A stretch of DNA of 64,000 nucleotides, taken from positions 15,860 through 79,859 of the forward strand of contig CAZTWK010000004.1 in NCBI GenBank assembly GCA_964617805.1. The letters run 5' to 3'. Below the pieces are notes generated by a model. That model was not told where the DNA came from. It saw nothing but the letters and a program-made list of their open reading frames with translations, and did no database searches. The position numbers and the translations under genes are program-made. The DNA comes from an uncultured Fibrobacteraceae bacterium (lineage in GTDB: Bacteria > Krumholzibacteriota > Krumholzibacteriia > LZORAL124-64-63). Below are positions 4,712 through 35,350 of the stretch, in pieces (position 1 is the first letter of the stretch; the number at the start of each line of letters is the position of its first letter).

Positions 4712-6967
4712 TCAATCCCCCCGCGAGACATCCCCCCGCGAGACACGCCGTTCGCAATGGGGCCAGCGGTTCCGCAGCTGCCCCCGCAGGGTGGCGCCGT
4801 CGGTGGCCGGGGCCTCGCAGGCGCCGAAGCGGCAGACGTAGGCGGCCGGCGCGTCGTCGAGGGCCGTCTTGCCCCGGGCGCCCGGCAGCAGGGCGGCCAG
4901 GTCGTCGCCGGGTCCGCCCGCCGGCACCGCCGACAGCACCGCGTAGTGGGGATCCAGCTCCCAGAAGGCCGCGCGCAGGGCGGCGGTCCGCTCGGCGGCG
5001 GGATCGCCGGCGATCACCACCTCGTAGTGGGGCCCGTGGTACAGGGACGCGGCGTCGGCCCACCAGGCCATCTCCAGGCCCGCGCGGGCCAGCCAGTCGC
5101 CGTGGCGGGCGAGGATCTCCCCCACCCGTTCGCGCCCGGCGGGATCGCCGGCCAGGGCCGCCTCGCGCAGCAGGGCGTGCAGCATGGCCGAGGCCCCCGA
5201 GGGCTCCACGCTGTCGAAGAGGTCCACGCGGCGGCCGAGGGGCGCCTCGCCGCCGGCGGCGGTCAGGAAGAAGCCGCCCGCGGGGTCGGCGAAGAGCTCG
5301 CCGGCGGTGGCGAGCAGCTCCCGCGCCCGACGCAGGTCCCGCGGGTCGCCGCCGGCCTGGTAGAGGTCGAGCAGCCCGCCGGCCAGCAGGGCGTAGTCGT
5401 CGAGGATGCCCTCGCCGCTGCGCACGCCGTCGGTCGACGCGCGGCAGAGGCGGCCGTCGTCGTCGCGGTGCAGCTCCCAGAGGCGGTCGGCGGTGCGGCG
5501 CGCCGCCTCGAGATAACGGGCGTCGCCCAGCACGGCGTGGCCGCGCGCGAAGGCCGACAGGGCCAGGCCGTTCCAGGCGGTCACCAGCTTCCGGTCCAGG
5601 CCCGGCCACGTGCGCGCGGCGCGGTGGTCGTACAGGGCCTGGCGATGGCGATCGAAGAGACCGGCCATCTCGGCCTCGTCGCGGCCGAACTCGGCGGCCA
5701 CTTCCACGGGCGACACACGGCGTGTGAGGATGGACTTGCCCTCGAAGTTGCCCCCCTCGGTCACGCCCAGCAGGCTTGCCAGGACGGGGCCGTCCTCGGG
5801 GCCGGCCACCGCCGCGATCTCCGCCGGCGTCCACACGTAGAAGCTGCCCTCCTCGCCCCCGCTGTCCGCGTCGTAGCTGGCGTAGAAGCCGCCCGCGGGA
5901 TCGCTCAGGTCGCGCAGCATGAAGTCGAGCAGGTCCACGGCGATTTCCCGGTAACGCGCGTCGTCGAAGACCGTGGCGGCCTCCAGGTAGAGGCTGGCGA
6001 GCTGGGCGTCGTCGTAGAGCATGATCTCGAAGTGGGGCACCAACCAGGTGCGCTCGACGGTGTAGCGGTGGAAGCCGCCGCCCAGGTGGTCGTGGATACC
6101 GCCGCTGCCCATGGCCGACAGGGTGTGCCGGATGGCCGCCGCGAGTTCCGGGTCGCCGTTGCGGCGGTACTGGTGCAGCAGGAAGCGCCAGCGCAGCGGG
6201 GTGGGGAACTTCTGCTCCTGGCGGAAGCCGCCCCAGGTCTCGTCGTAGCTCTCGAGGGCCTCGGCGGCCAGGGCAGCCAGGGCCTCCGGTCCGGGCACCG
6301 CGTCCCCCTCGCGGACGATGTCGCGGGACAGGTGCTCGGCCACCCGCTTCGCCTGGCCCACGAGCTCGTCGCGTCGTTCGTCATAGGCGGTCGCGATGCT
6401 GCGGCAGAGGTGCAGGAACGGGTCGCGGGGAAAGTAGGTGCCCCCGAAGAAGGGCTCCAGGTCGGGCGTGAGGAAGGCGGTCAGGGGCCAGCCGCCGCGC
6501 CCGGTCATGGCCTGCACGGCCTCCATGTACACGGCGTCCAGGTCGGGGCGCTCCTCCCGGTCCACCTTGATGCAGACGAAGCGGGCGTTGACCAGGGCCG
6601 CCACCGCGTCGTCCTCGAAGACCTCGTGCTCCATCACGTGGCACCAGTGGCACGAGGCGTAGCCGATGGACAGGAAGATGGGCTTGTCCTCCTCGCGCGC
6701 CCGCGCCAGCGCCGCCTCCCCCCACGGATACCAGTCCACGGGGTTGTGGGCGTGCTGGCGGAGGTAGACGGAGCTCTCGTCGCGCAGGTGGTTGCCCTGG
6801 GCGCGGATCTGCGCGGGCGTGCGAAGCCCGTCGTCGCGGTCGGTCATGGCGGCTCCCGTGCACACGGCCAGGAGCGCCAGGAACGCGGCCGTGCGCAGAA
6901 GTGGCAAGACACGGCGTCGGCGCGAAGGCGCCGCCGCCTTATTGAGAACGGTTTTCATTCTGCACAT
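4712..6967 (-). CDS. thioredoxin-domain protein, DUF255/YyaL family (N-terminal thioredoxin-like fold plus six-hairpin glycosidase-like domain), secreted
   Basis: 751 aa. Signal peptide, then the hallmark DUF255 motif IGYASCHWCHVMEHEVFED. Long alpha-helical C-terminal domain. Confidence 0.8.
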   Translation of the reverse strand: MCRMKTVLNKAAAPSRRRRVLPLLRTAAFLALLAVCTGAAMTDRDDGLRTPAQIRAQGNHLRDESSVYLRQHAHNPVDWYPWGEAALARAREEDKPIFLSIGYASCHWCHVMEHEVFEDDAVAALVNARFVCIKVDREERPDLDAVYMEAVQAMTGRGGWPLTAFLTPDLEPFFGGTYFPRDPFLHLCRSIATAYDERRDELVGQAKRVAEHLSRDIVREGDAVPGPEALAALAAEALESYDETWGGFRQEQKFPTPLRWRFLLHQYRRNGDPELAAAIRHTLSAMGSGGIHDHLGGGFHRYTVERTWLVPHFEIMLYDDAQLASLYLEAATVFDDARYREIAVDLLDFMLRDLSDPAGGFYASYDADSGGEEGSFYVWTPAEIAAVAGPEDGPVLASLLGVTEGGNFEGKSILTRRVSPVEVAAEFGRDEAEMAGLFDRHRQALYDHRAARTWPGLDRKLVTAWNGLALSAFARGHAVLGDARYLEAARRTADRLWELHRDDDGRLCRASTDGVRSGEGILDDYALLAGGLLDLYQAGGDPRDLRRARELLATAGELFADPAGGFFLTAAGGEAPLGRRVDLFDSVEPSGASAMLHALLREAALAGDPAGRERVGEILARHGDWLARAGLEMAWWADAASLYHGPHYEVVIAGDPAAERTAALRAAFWELDPHYAVLSAVPAGGPGDDLAALLPGARGKTALDDAPAAYVCRFGACEAPATDGATLRGQLRNRWPHCERRVSRGDVSRGD

Positions 6968-8357: not shown

Positions 8358-10223
8358 TTAGGGGATCGGCGTCGTTTCGAGCGGGAAGTCGTTCTGGGCG
8401 CCGGCGCCCCACTTGTGTCCCAACAGGTCGTCGTAGAACAGGTTGTTGGAACCGAACTTCAGCGACAACGCCTCGTAGCCCAGCATGTTCAGCGCCGCGG
8501 TGATCTGGCTGCTGTGCTGTCCGGTCCAGCAGTAGACCACGATGGGCATGTCCGTGGGCAGATGGCCCAGCATGGTCTCCATGCTCATGCTCGCGTAGGG
8601 CGTGAACTGGAAGGCGCCCGGGATGTGGCCCGGCACGCCGTCTTCGCCGACGCCCAGATAATCGTCCTCGTTGAAGTAGTTGACGACGAAGTAGTCCTCG
8701 AGGTTGTCCATGATGTCGGCGTACATCACGCCCTGGAAGCCCTCGCCGAGCATCCAGGCCACGCGGTCGGCCACCACGGTGCCGGCGTCGTAGCCGGCGA
8801 GCTCCGGATAGGCGTAGCCCACGAGGTCGCCGTTGTTGTTGTCGGTCTCGGCCACGGCCAGGGTGTTGTCCACGTTGTTGTTCCACGGACCGCTGAGGGT
8901 CGTGTTCCAGGCGGACATGCCGAACTTGAGGCTGCTCACGTCCTCGTAGCCCAGCAGCTCCAGGGAGATCTTGGCGTGGCCGGCGCTCTGGCCGGTGTAG
9001 CAGGCGACCACCATGGGCAGGTCGACCGGGATGGTCGTGCCCACGTCGGTCAGCAGCGTCGACAGCGACGAGTGGTAGGCGCCCGTGATGTGGCCGGCGT
9101 CGTAGTCGGTCTGGCTGCGGATGTCGATGACCGTGTAGTCCTCGAGGTTGTCGTAGAGGGCCTGCGCGCCCAGCACGCCGGGGCAGTCGCCGTTGTCGTT
9201 GACGTAGTCGACGACGGCGGCTTCCATGGCCGCGAACACCGGCGTCGGCACGCTGCCGATCTCCAGCTCGAAGTCGTAGGAGGCGCTCCACTTGTGGCCG
9301 GTCAGCAGACTGTGGAACAGGTTGTTGGAACCGAACTTGAGCGAGTAGGCCTCGTAGCCCAGCAGATTCAGGTAGGCCGTGATCTGCGAGGAGTGCTGAC
9401 CGGTCCAGCAGTAGACGATGATCGGCGTGTCCGTGGGCAGGTTGTCCAGCATCTGGTCGTCGCCGAGGCTGGCGTAGGGCGTGAACTGGAAGGCGCCGGG
9501 GATGTGGCCCGGCACGCCGTCTTCGCCGTTGCCGAGGTAGTCGTTCTCTCCGAAGTAGTTGAGGATGAAGTAGTCGTCGAGGTTGTCCATGATGTCGGCG
9601 TAGCTCTTGCCCTTGAAGCCCTCGTTGAGCATCCAGGCCACGCGCTCGGCCACCACCGTGCCCGCGTCGTAGCCGCTGAGGGCGGGGAAGTCGTGGGTGC
9701 TCAGGTCGCCGTTGTTGTTGTCGGTCTCGGGCGCGGCGAGGTTGTCGCCGCAGTTGGTGGTCCACTTGTCCAGCGAGGGGCTCCAGGAGGACATGCCGAA
9801 CTTCAGGCTGTTGACGTCGTCGTAGCCCATCAGCTCCATGGCGATCTTGGCGTGGCCGGCGCTCTGGCCGGTGTAGCAGGCCACCACGTAGGGCTTGTCC
9901 GCGGGGATGGCCTTGGCCGCCAAGTCGGCCAGCAGCGTGCCGAGCGACGAGTGGTACGCGCCGGGGATGTGGCCGGCGAGGTAGTCCGCTTCCGAGCGGA
10001 TGTCGATGACCGTGTAGTCCTCGAGGTTGTCGTGGAGGTTCTGGGCGTCGAGCACGCCGGGGCACTGGGCGTTGTCGTTGACGTAGGCCTTGCCAGCCGC
10101 CACCATGGCCTCGAACGCCGTTTCCTCGGGGGTCGGCGACGTGCCGTCGTCGGAGCAACCCCAGACGGCCACCATGGCGATCAGCAGCAATGCCGTCCAC
10201 ATCAAGCGCTTCTGCATTCTCAT
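8358..10223 (-). CDS. lipoprotein with four rhodanese-like sulfurtransferase domains (internal tandem duplication of a two-domain unit)
   Basis: Lipobox VWGC after the signal peptide. Two ~290-aa halves are clearly homologous. Each half carries candidate active-site loops CYTGQSAGHAK and CWTGQHSSQ. Good SD (GAGGAG) before the start. Confidence 0.8.
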   Translation of the reverse strand: MRMQKRLMWTALLLIAMVAVWGCSDDGTSPTPEETAFEAMVAAGKAYVNDNAQCPGVLDAQNLHDNLEDYTVIDIRSEADYLAGHIPGAYHSSLGTLLADLAAKAIPADKPYVVACYTGQSAGHAKIAMELMGYDDVNSLKFGMSSWSPSLDKWTTNCGDNLAAPETDNNNGDLSTHDFPALSGYDAGTVVAERVAWMLNEGFKGKSYADIMDNLDDYFILNYFGENDYLGNGEDGVPGHIPGAFQFTPYASLGDDQMLDNLPTDTPIIVYCWTGQHSSQITAYLNLLGYEAYSLKFGSNNLFHSLLTGHKWSASYDFELEIGSVPTPVFAAMEAAVVDYVNDNGDCPGVLGAQALYDNLEDYTVIDIRSQTDYDAGHITGAYHSSLSTLLTDVGTTIPVDLPMVVACYTGQSAGHAKISLELLGYEDVSSLKFGMSAWNTTLSGPWNNNVDNTLAVAETDNNNGDLVGYAYPELAGYDAGTVVADRVAWMLGEGFQGVMYADIMDNLEDYFVVNYFNEDDYLGVGEDGVPGHIPGAFQFTPYASMSMETMLGHLPTDMPIVVYCWTGQHSSQITAALNMLGYEALSLKFGSNNLFYDDLLGHKWGAGAQNDFPLETTPIP

Positions 10224-10323
10224 CACTCCTCAGTCGAGCCCGCGGGCTCGGGGTTGTGGAGCGGCGCGGGCCGCCCCGTGCTAACGGAGACCGGGCGCGG
10301 CAAACGCCCGGCCGCTATACGCG

Positions 10324-11820
10324 TCATTCTTCCTCTTCCGGAAAGGATTCCGGGATCACGATGCCGACGTTCGCGTCGTGGTCCGGCAACGGCGTGACGC
10401 CGTCCTCGTCGTAGAGATCCGACACGCGCAACAGGTAGCCCTCGGGCGCGTCGGGCGATAGATGGCAGGCGTCGGAGCAGGACTGGCCCGCCTCGACCGT
10501 GGTCTGCGGCGTGTTGCGCAGGATGTTGTGGGGCGACGCGTAGGTCCAGGTCGGCTCGTCGAGATAGCCGGGCAGATCCAGGCCCCAATCCGCGAAGGTG
10601 CCGGGATCGGTGGGCACGTGCCTCACCACGGAGAAGTCGTACTCATCCCGGTACGGGCTCGGATTCCGCGCGATCTTGAACTGGATGCGGCTGGGATCGA
10701 TCTCGAACTTCGCTCCCTCGTCTGCCACCAGGTTGTGGCAGTTCGTGCAGTTCTTGTAGGGTTGCGAATGGCAGACCTGGCACTGGAGGTTCACGTCGGG
10801 CACGCCCACGTGCGCCTCGTGGAACTCGTTGTCCCACGCGCCGTCGAGGCCCTCGCCGTGGCAGTCCTCGCAACGGGGCATGGTGGCCACCTCGTAGCGG
10901 TGCTCGTAGTGGTCGCCGGCGTGCTGGCCATCGCCGTGCATCTCCTCCGCGCTGTGGCAGTTCTCGCACTTCATGCCGGCGCTGCGGTGCAGGTCGGGCA
11001 CGTTGCCCTCGAGTTCGCCCTTGAAATCGACCCCGACACGGCTGCCGTGACAGGCGGTGCACTGCTCGTTCATGTCCGGCGAGGCCCGGAAGCGGTGCGA
11101 GTAGTAGGAGCCGATCTTGGGGAAGCCGCCGCCCACGCTGTTGGGCCGGCCGATGTGGCACTGGCCGCAGGTGGTGTGGCAGCCGCCGCACTTGTTGTCG
11201 AAGTAGGTTTCGTAGCCCGACCCCTCGAAGACGCAGCGCCCGCGCGTCTCGATGGCGCGCTTCTCGCCCCAGAGATTGGTGTGCAGGCTGTTGGCGGTGG
11301 CCGCGGCCTCCGCCTCGTGGCACCCGGCGCAGGCGGAGTCGGCGAAGTCCTCCTCGTGGCAAGCGACGCAGCCGGACGGCCCGACGGCGCTGGGATCGGC
11401 GATCATGCCGTCATGGGCTTCGGCCATGTCGTCGAACGTGTTGTCGGGCTGACCCCCGTGGCAGTGCTGGCACGATAGCGGGTGCGGCACCAGGTCGCCC
11501 TCGTAGTCGGGGCCGTGCGCGCTGGTCAGGAAGCGGGTGGCGTTGGTGCCCCTGATGATGACCTTCTCCCAAGCCTCCAGCTCGGGTACGTCGCCGCCTC
11601 AGCCGTCCTGCTTGTGGGGCACGACCGCCTTGCTGCCCCCCGCGTCGGCCAGGGCCGCCTGGAGCATCTCCTCGCTCTCGTGGCAGCCGAGACAGGTCAG
11701 ATCGGTCAGGTGATCGCCCTCGCCCGGATCGAGCAGTTCGTTGGAGGTGTCGTGTTCGCACCCCCACAGGCAGGCCAGCGCCAGCAACGACATGGCGCTT
11801 ACGGTGATGACTCTGTTCAT
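10324..11820 (-). CDS. multiheme c-type cytochrome lipoprotein (about 12 CXXCH) interrupted by one in-frame TGA at 11599-11601: candidate selenoprotein or readthrough gene
   Basis: ORF 11599..11820 encodes lipoprotein signal MNRVITVSAMSLLALACLWGC plus CLGCH. ORF 10324..11490 encodes 11 further heme motifs (CQHCH, CVACH, CAGCH, CGGCH, CGQCH, CTACH, CENCH, CEDCH, CQVCH, CTNCH, CSDACH) with no signal peptide of its own. The two are in the same frame, separated only by a TGA and 36 sense codons. The downstream ORF start in the track is a GTG. Confidence 0.6.
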
Positions 11821-32941: not shown

Positions 32942-33805
32942 TCAAAACGATGACTCAAGACCTCCGAGACAGGGTTCGGCATCCGCCCCGAAACCCAGCA
33001 ATTCCATGATTTCCACCCTCAGCGACGGCGGCGGCGGCTGACGATGGCCGGCGGGTTCGAGCTCCGAACGCGTCTCGGCGCGCTCCGCGGCGTAGGCGAT
33101 CCCCAGGAAGGGCACGTCCGCGTGGACCGCGGCGCTCACTTCCCGCCGGTGGATCTGCAGCATCCGGCCGCGCGGCAGGTCTATGCGCGTCGTGTCGCCG
33201 GCGACCAGGGTGAACTGGTCGCAGAGCAGGTCCGCCTCGCCGACCACGCGCGTGGTCCGGCCCTCCTCGGTGCGGGTGTCGGCCTCGAAATCGGTCTCCA
33301 GGAAGGCGCCGGTCAGGGGATCGTCGCGCCACTGCTCGGGCGGCAGGGTGCGGGCCTCCCCCTCCTGCCACTGCACGACCTCCCGCACGTGGTCGACCAG
33401 CGACCCCGTGCGCGCGGCCAGCCCCTTGTCGAGGGTCAGGCGCAGTCCCTCCCCCGGCACGGGCTCGCGGCCGTCGGGGCTCTCGGCCAGGGGCAGCACC
33501 TCGATCAGCCAGGCCGCCTCCGACTCGCCCACGCACTGGATGCGCACGACCTCCACGCGCCGGCGTCCCCCTTCGAGGGTCGTGGCCTGGTAGTCCGCCC
33601 GGCAGCCGGGCTCGATGCGCATCACCGCCTCGGGCTGGCGCCACAGGGTGAACACGTCCAGGGCCCGGGCGGCGTCGGCCCCGGCCAGCCCCAGCAGGCA
33701 CAGGCCACATAGCGCGACGGCCGTCGCTCGGTGGCTCCGGCCGTCGGCGCGCGCGTCCGCGGGGACGTGCCGCTCAGTGTTCGATCTTGGCCCAGTACGT
33801 GTCAT
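32942..33805 (-). CDS. hypothetical secreted protein (start uncertain, possibly an internal GTG near 33718)
   Basis: 287-aa ORF. Hydrophobic signal-like segment VALCGLCLLGLAGADAARA. Overlaps the upstream gene by 31 nt if the annotated ATG is used. Confidence 0.45.
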   Translation of the reverse strand: MTRTGPRSNTERHVPADARADGRSHRATAVALCGLCLLGLAGADAARALDVFTLWRQPEAVMRIEPGCRADYQATTLEGGRRRVEVVRIQCVGESEAAWLIEVLPLAESPDGREPVPGEGLRLTLDKGLAARTGSLVDHVREVVQWQEGEARTLPPEQWRDDPLTGAFLETDFEADTRTEEGRTTRVVGEADLLCDQFTLVAGDTTRIDLPRGRMLQIHRREVSAAVHADVPFLGIAYAAERAETRSELEPAGHRQPPPPSLRVEIMELLGFGADAEPCLGGLESSF

Positions 33806-35138
33806 AGTCGAAGTCCGGGCTGTTCTCCTGGTCGTGGCAGGTCACGCACGCGTTGCGCGCCTCCTGCTTCCACTTGCCGTCGCGGCTGTGCAGCGTGCCG
33901 TAGCCGTGGCAGGCCTCGCACTGCACGGCGCGCAGGCGGTTGGCCGGCGGCTTGTCGTCGTAACCGCCGATGTAGACGTAACCGGTCGTGTGGCAGACCA
34001 GGCATTCCGGCGCGTCGGTCTGGCCCTTGCGCGCCAGGGTGTTGAAGGCGTCGCTGTGGGCGCTGTCGCGCAGCAGGTCCGCGACGTCCTGGTGGCACTT
34101 GCGGCACTCGCGGTCGGTCAGGAAGGACTCGTCCGCGAAACCCTGGGTCTGCTGGTAGATGCCGCGGGCCGCGACCCGGAACTCCTCGAGCCGCACCTTG
34201 AAGGCCTCCACGCGCTCCAGCATGACGGGATCGTCGGCGACGGAGTCGTTCAACTCGTAGACCTCCAGGGCGAAGGCCTTCATGTCGCCGCTGGCCGGAT
34301 CGAACTGACCGTCCAGGCGGCCGATGTAGCGGCCCTCGAAGGACGAGCAGATCAGGGCGGCGTCGTTCAGGATCCGCTCCGTGCGGTAGGGACGCCGGGA
34401 GTGCCCGACCAGGCAGATGTCCACGCCGTCCACGTCGGCCAGCAGGGCCTCGGTGCCGGCGTCGCCCATGTGCGAGAGCACGATGACCGTCTGGGCGCCC
34501 GCCGCGCGCAGGCGCGGGAGCACTTCGTTGAGGGTCTCCACCGGATCGTCGACCTGGTAGATCTCCTCCTTGGCGGACATGGACATGATGTTCGACGCGG
34601 GGTCGAGCACCGAGCATACGCCGAAGGTGACGCCCCCCCGCTCGATGAGCAGGTACTCGGGCAGGATCAGCTCGCCCGTTTCGGGCAGGCGCACGTTGGC
34701 GCTGGTGAAGGGGAGCTGATAGGTGTCCATCATCTCGCGCAGGAAGTCGAGACCGTAGTTCAGGTCGGCCTCGCCGAGGCCGATCGCGTCGTAGCCGAAC
34801 TCGCTGGTCAGCTCGCAGACGAAACGGGTCTGCTCGCGTTCGATGCGCTTGCGGCGGCCGAAGAGGTCGCCGGCATCGATCATCAGCACGGGATCGCCCG
34901 TATTCCAGATCTCGTCGAGTATCGTGGCCCGCCGGGCCACACCGCCGCGTCGGTTCGACTTTCACCCACAGGGTTCGATCTTGCCGATCACGTCGGAGTT
35001 GTAGACGATCTTCACCGGCGCCCACGTGCCGGCGTCCTGGGCGGAGGACTCGAGCGCCGCGGGGGGCGTGCTCGATACGAGGACCAGCAGGGCCAGCAGC
35101 CCCAGCCAGGCCTTACTTGCCTTGATCAATGACACCAT
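33774..35138 (-). CDS. secreted metallophosphoesterase (5'-nucleotidase-like) fused to a C-terminal tetraheme cytochrome c domain, with one in-frame TGA at 34962-34964: candidate selenoprotein
   Basis: Start MVSLIKASKAWLGLLALLVLVSS (signal) with SD GTGGAG. The upstream ORF ends ...VIGKIEPCG-TGA. The same frame continues KSNRRGGVARRATILDEIW...LMIDAGDLFG (phosphoesterase), and the C-terminus has CRKCH, CLVCH, CEACH, CVTCH. The downstream part has no signal peptide of its own. Confidence 0.6.
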
Positions 35139-35350
35139 CGTAACTCCACGATTGCGGGATTCGTTGCGGACAGGATGACGGGTTCCCATGCGGGGAACCC
35201 AGGATCAAACCAACACGGTGCGTCCGAGTTCCCGCACCGCGGCGTCAATGATACCAGCAGGGGGCGGGCCGATCAAGGACGGTGCGGTTCCCGGGACGAG
35301 ACGAGGGGACGGCACGCGGCCGACCCCTCGTTCGAGTTCCCCGAAGGGAG

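Follow-up and report, generated by a model that had tools for sequence, protein, structure and literature searches.

We analyzed a 64,000-nucleotide (nt) stretch of DNA from an uncultured Fibrobacteraceae bacterium (assembly GCA_964617805.1, contig CAZTWK010000004.1; hereafter the window, with all coordinates given as window positions) and found that a gene on its minus strand, at 33774..35138, almost certainly encodes one secreted selenocysteine (Sec) protein, in which a phosphoesterase-like N-terminal domain is followed by a tetraheme cytochrome. The gene is very probably a Sec-decoded member of the UshA-like PCGU family. As read from the sequence and its translation, a single frame runs from 35138 down to 33774 and has a sole interruption, a TGA at 34964..34962. 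The two open reading frames (ORFs) on either side of it, 34962..35189(-) and 33774..34940(-), have this frame in common; the peptide reads ...IEPCG-TGA-KSNRRGGVARRAT at the interruption and, more widely, ...VKIVYNSDVIGKIEPCG-TGA-KSNRRGGVARRATILDEIW...IDAGDLFG. The likely start codon is the ATG at 35138..35136. The N-terminus, MVSLIKASKAWLGLLALLVLVSS, is hydrophobic and signal-peptide-like when judged by eye, and this region is needed for export of the gene product and for heme attachment. A hydrophobic N-terminus was found upstream of the TGA in all homologous loci. In these respects, namely the ORF pair in one frame, the lone in-frame TGA, the four CXXCH motifs and the signal-like N-terminus that occurs only upstream, the locus is as the preliminary description of this DNA had it.

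Comparison of homologous loci argues that the TGA is read as Sec. We fetched 88 such loci from genomes and metagenomes and compared 81 distinct sites equivalent to the TGA, of which 59 carried TGA and 22 a Cys codon (TGC or TGT). The loci reach down to about 27% identity and come from records labelled Krumholzibacteriota, Latescibacteria, “Fibrobacteraceae” and Armatimonadota. Full-length homologues (P0049, P0063, P0067 and P0059) have CGC where the window protein has C-G-TGA, for example IDPCGCKAHPRGG. One of these, P0059, is a 317-residue Cys-form variant that is continuous through the TGA site, and its phosphoesterase-like domain passes straight into the second CXXCH (...VDICLVCHTTGY...), which implies a later internal deletion. 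For both P0059 and P0012 the longest listed contig is an ENA contig of 99,248 bases; P0059 could be a paralogue that accompanies a Sec form of that assembly, or else an artefact of assembly.

The UGA is followed, within the coding sequence, by a hairpin whose loop lies 28 nt away. A 6-bp GC stem (GUGGCC/GGCCAC) had been described at this place; the stem is present and slightly longer than described, with arms of 7 nt. In an alignment anchored on the PCGU motif, 35 Sec-form sequences shared this 28-nt register, with 90% of cells paired and the six inner pairs always paired. G-C/C-G and G-C/U-G exchanges were seen between the arms, and none of 500 column shuffles reached the observed covariation. 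A second class of Sec forms carries the hairpin CUUGGC-GGUCUG-GCCAGG at 18 nt after the UGA, with double changes in four pairs. When the registers were fixed, at least six of the seven pairs were formed in 57 of 58 Sec forms versus 4 of 20 Cys forms (Fisher p = 4e-12), although the hairpin statistics overstate independence because the sequences are interrelated and the registers were taken from the Sec forms. The stem in either register includes the GCC codon of Ala68, a residue found in 54 of the 58 Sec forms and absent from all 19 Cys forms. The Cys form L020 (TGC, 52% identity) retains the peptide LARRAT and did not form the matching stem when folded; base by base, its GCG codons for both Ala residues introduce two mismatches.

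The bacterial selenocysteine insertion sequence (SECIS) model of Zhang and Gladyshev reportedly places a G-containing apical loop 16-37 nt from the UGA. In common with bacterial SECIS elements such as that of E. coli fdhF, the window hairpin lies within the coding sequence right after the UGA, with its loop in the 16-37 nt range and with Gs in the loop. It differs from them in that the stem is made of the codons of a conserved A-R-R-A peptide and in that two registers, 18 and 28 nt, occur within one family. Both registers use the codons of a conserved G-G-L-A-R-R-A. The 18-nt class (L035, L049, L062 and others) has the loop GGUCUG, and the 28-nt class (the window, L001-L034 and others) has the loop GG(A/C), with a distance of 25 nt in three loci that have one codon fewer.

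Family assignment places both halves of the gene in one protein. The Pfam matches were PF00149 (calcineurin-like phosphoesterase) and PF13435 (Cytochrome_C554), the latter with E = 1e-11 and 45.9 bits against a gathering threshold of 20.8. The best NCBIfam match, at 261.8 bits and E = 1e-77, was NF041198 (UshA_like_PCGU, “UshA-like (seleno)protein”), a model of 519 positions with a curated cut-off of 275 bits, whose name itself contains the P-C-G-U motif of the window protein. Positions 12-274 of the model align to the N-terminal part, and the C-terminal 180 residues scanned alone matched positions 348-518 with 113.8 bits. The P-C-G-U motif and the two-part architecture that NF041198 requires are both present. 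Relatives L049, L084, L005 and L029 scored 347, 333.5, 298.8 and 295.4 bits respectively, all above the cut-off, and L038, L034, L043 and L036 fell slightly under it, as did the window protein, which we treat as a diverged member of this homologous family and not as a certified equivalog. These Pfam and NCBIfam matches agree with the earlier description of a 5'-nucleotidase-like metallophosphoesterase with a C-terminal tetraheme cytochrome. Since NF041198 covers the heme part too, the phosphoesterase-tetraheme fusion is the normal architecture of the family. The fusion had been called unusual, and this was wrong, given the span of the model and the at least 473 confirmed relatives that were found in one metagenome scan. 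The proposal that UGA encodes Sec in a C-G-U context holds, in view of the Cys at this site in full-length homologues, the TGA in 59 of 81 loci, the TGA-specific hairpin and the curated model.

The family is widespread, occurring in metagenomes of marine, soil and sediment origin. UshA-like CxU selenoproteins have been catalogued since the 2008 Global Ocean Sampling analysis, as “COG0737 UshA-like, CxU” (PMC2398784), and “UshA-like protein, CxU” is listed in two further papers (PMC9312934 and PMC13188914), the second of which cites NF041198. We found no functional study of the UshA-like PCGU family in the searchable literature, and searches for multiheme with nucleotidase and selenocysteine, for multiheme cytochrome with metallophosphoesterase and for Krumholzibacteriota with selenocysteine returned no papers. 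The window protein shares with the NF041198 family the P-C-G-U motif, the 5'-nucleotidase-like N-terminal part joined to a C-terminal part with four CXXCH motifs, and the existence of Sec and Cys forms. It departs from the model in being about 65 residues shorter, with positions 275-347 unmatched, and in coming from a Krumholzibacteriota-type clade in which all public gene calls are truncated. Its SECIS also stands in the 28-nt register, whereas the best-scoring relative tested (L049, 347 bits) belongs to the 18-nt class. Another Sec-containing model of the same N-terminal fold matched weakly (37.9 bits, cut-off 140); this is a model of 262 positions with a CxxU motif, in contrast to CxU in the window, and its positions 1-91 align to residues 42-126 and include no heme domain. 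The C-terminal part resembles the tetraheme cytochrome c554 of Nitrosomonas (PF13435; PDB 1bvb and 1ft5), with E = 8e-6 for 1bvb. The Nitrosomonas protein is a free electron carrier of the hydroxylamine pathway, whereas here the c554-type domain is the C-terminal module of a larger selenoprotein.

The N-terminal domain has the fold of 5'-nucleotidases. A predicted model of the Cys homologue P0063 (mean predicted local distance difference test score, pLDDT, of 79, with most of the N-terminal domain above 90) had its best structural matches in CD73 and bacterial 5'-nucleotidases (Foldseek E = 1e-22), and the window protein itself matched 5'-nucleotidases with phmmer at E = 6e-15. In an alignment to the Thermus 5'-nucleotidase 2z1a, D49-V-I51 corresponds to the D-x-H motif, and C57 and U59 come 8 and 10 residues further along, in a loop that the sequence alignment locates between strand beta-1 and helix alpha-1. 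The TGA had been said to lie near the first metal-ligand motif, and the 2z1a alignment confirms this.

Conservation was assessed in an alignment of 77 family members translated from their loci. The motif is nearly invariant, with P56 in 73, C57 in 76, G58 in 76 and U or C at position 59 in all 77, and the first three CXXCH motifs, H361 and H417 are present in every member, the fourth CXXCH in 76. Residues G65, G66, R69, R70, D88, G90 and N148 are also invariant or nearly so. The metal-ligand motifs of the window protein are degenerate, with D49-V-I51 for D-x-H and G-E123-A124-D for G-N-H-E/D, while G-D91, H223 and G-H246 are kept; the binuclear ligand set is thus incomplete and the catalytic Asp-His dyad is absent. 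From member to member the residues at these sites differ: D49 is D, N or S; I51 is K, R, H, G or L; E123, at the Asn of G-N-H, is E, Q, D or K; A124, at the catalytic His, is L, R, K, A, T or others; and H223 and H246 are kept by roughly 80% of the members. In the window protein Pfam detected no C-terminal substrate-binding domain of the 5'-nucleotidase type; the cytochrome c554-like domain stands in that place. In comparison with UshA, 5'-nucleotidase and CD73 (COG0737; PDB 1ush, 2z1a and 4h2i), the N-terminal metallophosphoesterase fold is shared, whereas the His of D-x-H and the Asn and catalytic His of G-N-H-E/D are replaced, the C-terminal nucleotide-binding domain is missing, and Sec and four hemes are present. 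It is very unlikely that the window protein is a nucleotidase.

Several observations weigh against a Sec-decoded member of this family, besides the relatedness of the sequences mentioned above. The window protein is 13 bits short of the NF041198 cut-off (261.8 versus 275). Against shuffles, the 81-nt segment that surrounds the TGA has a folding energy not unusual for its G+C content (z = -0.49), a comparison that says little in G+C-rich coding sequence, and support for the hairpin therefore comes from the comparison of homologous loci. The hairpin codons also encode the conserved G-G-x-A-R-R-A, so that their conservation is partly at the protein level, and an Rfam scan of the window gave no family at gathering thresholds. 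One Sec form, L036 (about 763-2019), reads IVPAG-TGA-GGNASGGVARRAT, that is A-G-U and not C-G-U, which means that the Cys two residues before Sec is not absolutely required. No tRNA gene, and hence no tRNA-Sec, was found in the 64-kb window, and a weak regular-expression motif scan of its six frames found no SelA, SelB or SelD. Finally, the redox mechanism proposed below derives solely from conservation patterns. Despite the caveats on the hairpin, its pattern across loci matches that of a bacterial SECIS.

We infer that the organism of the window inserts Sec. A second gene with a conserved in-frame TGA in the window suggests the same. This gene, at 10324-11820(-), encodes a lipoprotein-like multiheme cytochrome with a TGA at 11601..11599 in the context DG-TGA-GG.VPELEAWEK, and the TGA and a downstream hairpin (CCCGAGCU-GGA-AGCUUGGG) are kept in three relatives (L090-L092) at 59-66% identity. 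The preliminary description had counted it as a second case. The conserved in-frame TGA and hairpin bear this out, but the case is less clean, as full-length homologues have Trp (P0122 and P0145) or Pro (P0170 and P0179) at the TGA and not Cys. Its product matched no NCBIfam selenoprotein model. Its neighbors, here as in the relatives, are a TetR-like gene on one side and a gene for a 620-residue multi-rhodanese protein (window 8358-10226) on the other.

Other explanations of the TGA must also be considered. If it were a true stop, the locus would be a pseudogene or else two genes, one for a secreted peptide of 58 residues and one for a cytochrome of 388 residues whose start is GTG 34940. Every public gene call in the clade is indeed the downstream piece of 386-388 residues, and Sec machinery was not seen in the window by the searches described above. 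Yet this downstream piece has no signal peptide, while its four CXXCH motifs need periplasmic maturation; the GTG from which it would start falls within the conserved hairpin; upstream of the TGA, both reading frame and peptide are kept in 59 loci, down to about 27% identity; the Cys homologues are continuous through the TGA point; and a curated selenoprotein model spans both pieces. We give a true stop a very slim chance. It is scarcely credible that the TGA is a Cys codon corrupted by faulty sequencing or assembly, even though a single base separates TGA from TGC and TGT and Cys forms exist in the family, as the TGA is shared at this position by 59 independent sequences from metagenomes or genomes, is accompanied by a hairpin specific to TGA forms, and is followed by a truncated product (P0001) that has been recorded in identical form on three contigs. 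There is a slim chance that an ordinary amino acid such as Trp, Gly or Cys is placed at the UGA, through read-through or reassignment and with no selenocysteine. Such a reading gains from the fact that the Sec machinery of this genome is inferred and from the Trp and Pro found in homologues of the second TGA gene. However, TGA terminates the window gene and 34 of 57 Sec-form genes, which shows that the genetic code is not reassigned genome-wide; the codon has a context-dependent double meaning. Moreover, the aligned residue in homologues of the family is always Cys, the SECIS-type hairpin has a G-rich loop at a conserved distance, and the family has been curated and published as a selenoprotein.

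Even with Sec accepted, the protein might still be a hydrolytic metallophosphoesterase, either a nucleotidase or a SoxB-like thiosulfohydrolase, with a regulatory or additional metal-binding role for Sec and some other use for the hemes. We consider this unlikely. The strictly invariant elements are the P-C-G-U/C motif and the heme motifs, whereas the catalytic His of G-N-H-E/D is absent from all 77 members, the His of D-x-H is absent from most members and occurs in only 10 of 58 Sec forms, and the remaining ligand positions vary. A c554-like heme domain also occupies the C-terminus, where Pfam detects no 5'-nucleotidase domain. The case for hydrolysis draws on the fold, which is that of 5'-nucleotidases, on four of the seven UshA-type ligand positions being kept in the window protein (D49, D91, H223 and H246), and on SoxB (TIGR04486; PDB 2wdc and 4uwq) being the second-best NCBIfam match, with 70 bits. 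SoxB is likewise a protein of the 5'-nucleotidase superfamily, periplasmic and active in sulfur chemistry. Nevertheless, the window protein is far under the 550-bit cut-off of that model, and SoxB contains neither Sec nor hemes and keeps its di-manganese site intact.

For the Sec-decoded protein we propose the following scheme. Translation would begin at ATG 35138, and the UGA at 34964..34962 would be decoded as Sec by means of the hairpin at 34940..34924, while the TGA at 33776..33774, which has no such hairpin, would bring about termination. The product would be exported by its N-terminal signal peptide, and four hemes c would be attached to the c554-like domain. In the N-terminal domain the 5'-nucleotidase fold persists but the binuclear metal site is only partly preserved, with the catalytic His among the losses, and C57 and U59 would form a redox-active selenenylsulfide or selenolate center that exchanges electrons with the heme chain. 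The product would then be a periplasmic or extracytoplasmic oxidoreductase rather than a nucleotidase. Given the invariance of P-C-G-U/C and the hemes and the variability of the metal ligands, the conservation pattern suggests a Cys-x-Sec redox enzyme, and we put the chances of such a mechanism wired to the hemes at about even. As to the substrate, the invariant Arg69 and Arg70 and the weak resemblance to SoxB lead us to guess at a small anionic chalcogen or sulfur compound. In a marine clade of Cys forms with the motif LKPCGCAKEEDQGG, a gene for a DsbA-like thioredoxin-fold protein with CGHC follows within about 36 nt; this neighbor fits thiol chemistry and proves nothing.

The features of the locus, together with one example of the DsbA-like gene, are collected in Table 1.

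Table 1. Features of the selenoprotein gene and its surroundings. Coordinates are window positions, except for the last row, which refers to locus L069.
Feature	Position	Strand	Remarks
Complete gene	33774..35138	-	454 codons, from ATG 35138..35136 (likely start) to stop TGA 33776..33774; internal UGA = Sec59
Promoter-like site TTGATC-17-TATCAT	35248..35276	-	About 110 nt upstream of the start codon; consensus match only
Shine-Dalgarno-like GGAG	35144..35147	-	5 nt before ATG 35138; read from the sequence
Signal-peptide-like N-terminus	35040..35138	-	Residues 1 to about 33; K-rich start, hydrophobic core WLGLLALLVLV
5'-nucleotidase-type metallophosphoesterase-like domain	34281..35015	-	Residues about 42-286; PF00149, NF041198 positions 12-274
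P56-C57-G58-U59 motif	34962..34973	-	Sec codon is the TGA at 34964..34962
SECIS-like hairpin GUGGCCC-GGC-GGGCCAC	34924..34940	-	Within the coding sequence, codons for V-A-R-R-A-T; arms GUGGCCC 34940..34934 and GGGCCAC 34930..34924, loop GGC 34933..34931
Cytochrome c554-like tetraheme domain	33777..34136	-	Residues about 335-454; PF13435, NF041198 positions 348-518
Heme motif CRKCH	34106..34092	-	
Heme motif CLVCH	34004..33990	-	
Heme motif CEACH	33920..33906	-	
Heme motif CVTCH	33848..33834	-	
Secreted ORF of 287 residues	32942..33805	-	32-nt overlap with the end of the selenoprotein gene
DsbA-like gene, example	5335-5961 (L069)		Also at 11 other Cys-form loci

The secreted ORF of 287 residues that overlaps the end of the selenoprotein gene is probably co-transcribed with it, and the overlapping arrangement was found at 20 loci of the window's clade. 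Its predicted structure (pLDDT 84) is an open half-barrel like that of LolA, RseB and MucB, a modeled fold that points to envelope biogenesis rather than to a redox partner. The ORF is restricted to the clade, with 62 homologues, none of which has a Pfam domain. Within the clade the syntenic order is an LptD-like gene, HU, the selenoprotein gene, the LolA-like ORF and an RNase T-like exonuclease. No neighboring gene was common across clades, so the neighborhood gave no hint of redox role or substrate and was dropped as a clue to function.

The reading of the TGA as Sec has consequences for annotation. Nearly all of the best 120 database homologues are 367-392 residues long and start at the equivalent of “MARRAT”, with the same cut point. 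Public calls (P0001 and others, of 386-388 residues) start at GTG 34940, the codon that opens the 5' arm of the hairpin, and miss the first 76 codons. Because the gene callers chose a GTG start within the SECIS hairpin, nearly all entries of the clade (P0001-P0120) are N-terminally truncated. The signal peptide, the first beta-strand and the Sec residue are all missing from such calls, which are annotated as a cytoplasmic-looking “hypothetical protein” or “multiheme cytochrome”. Right annotation of the gene requires a Sec-aware gene caller.

In conclusion, the window copy, which stems from a Krumholzibacteriota-like lineage, is a slightly diverged member of the UshA-like PCGU family and contributes nothing of a new category to the known selenoproteins. 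The question of interest is the chemistry of the family rather than this copy. The conservation pattern, in which P-C-G-U and the hemes are invariant and the metal ligands have decayed, provides a testable idea of where that chemistry takes place. As a tentative and rather doubtful extension, the family may represent an uncharacterised class of extracytoplasmic selenoenzymes, in which an ancestral binuclear-metal hydrolase site would have been converted into a Cys-x-Sec redox center or a Sec-ligated hybrid metal center with a fused tetraheme wire. The substrate of such an enzyme would lie outside the range of known selenoenzymes (polysulfide, thiosulfate, selenite or a metalloid, for instance), and its SECIS, embedded in the codons of the functionally conserved A-R-R-A, would have moved between the 18- and 28-nt registers.

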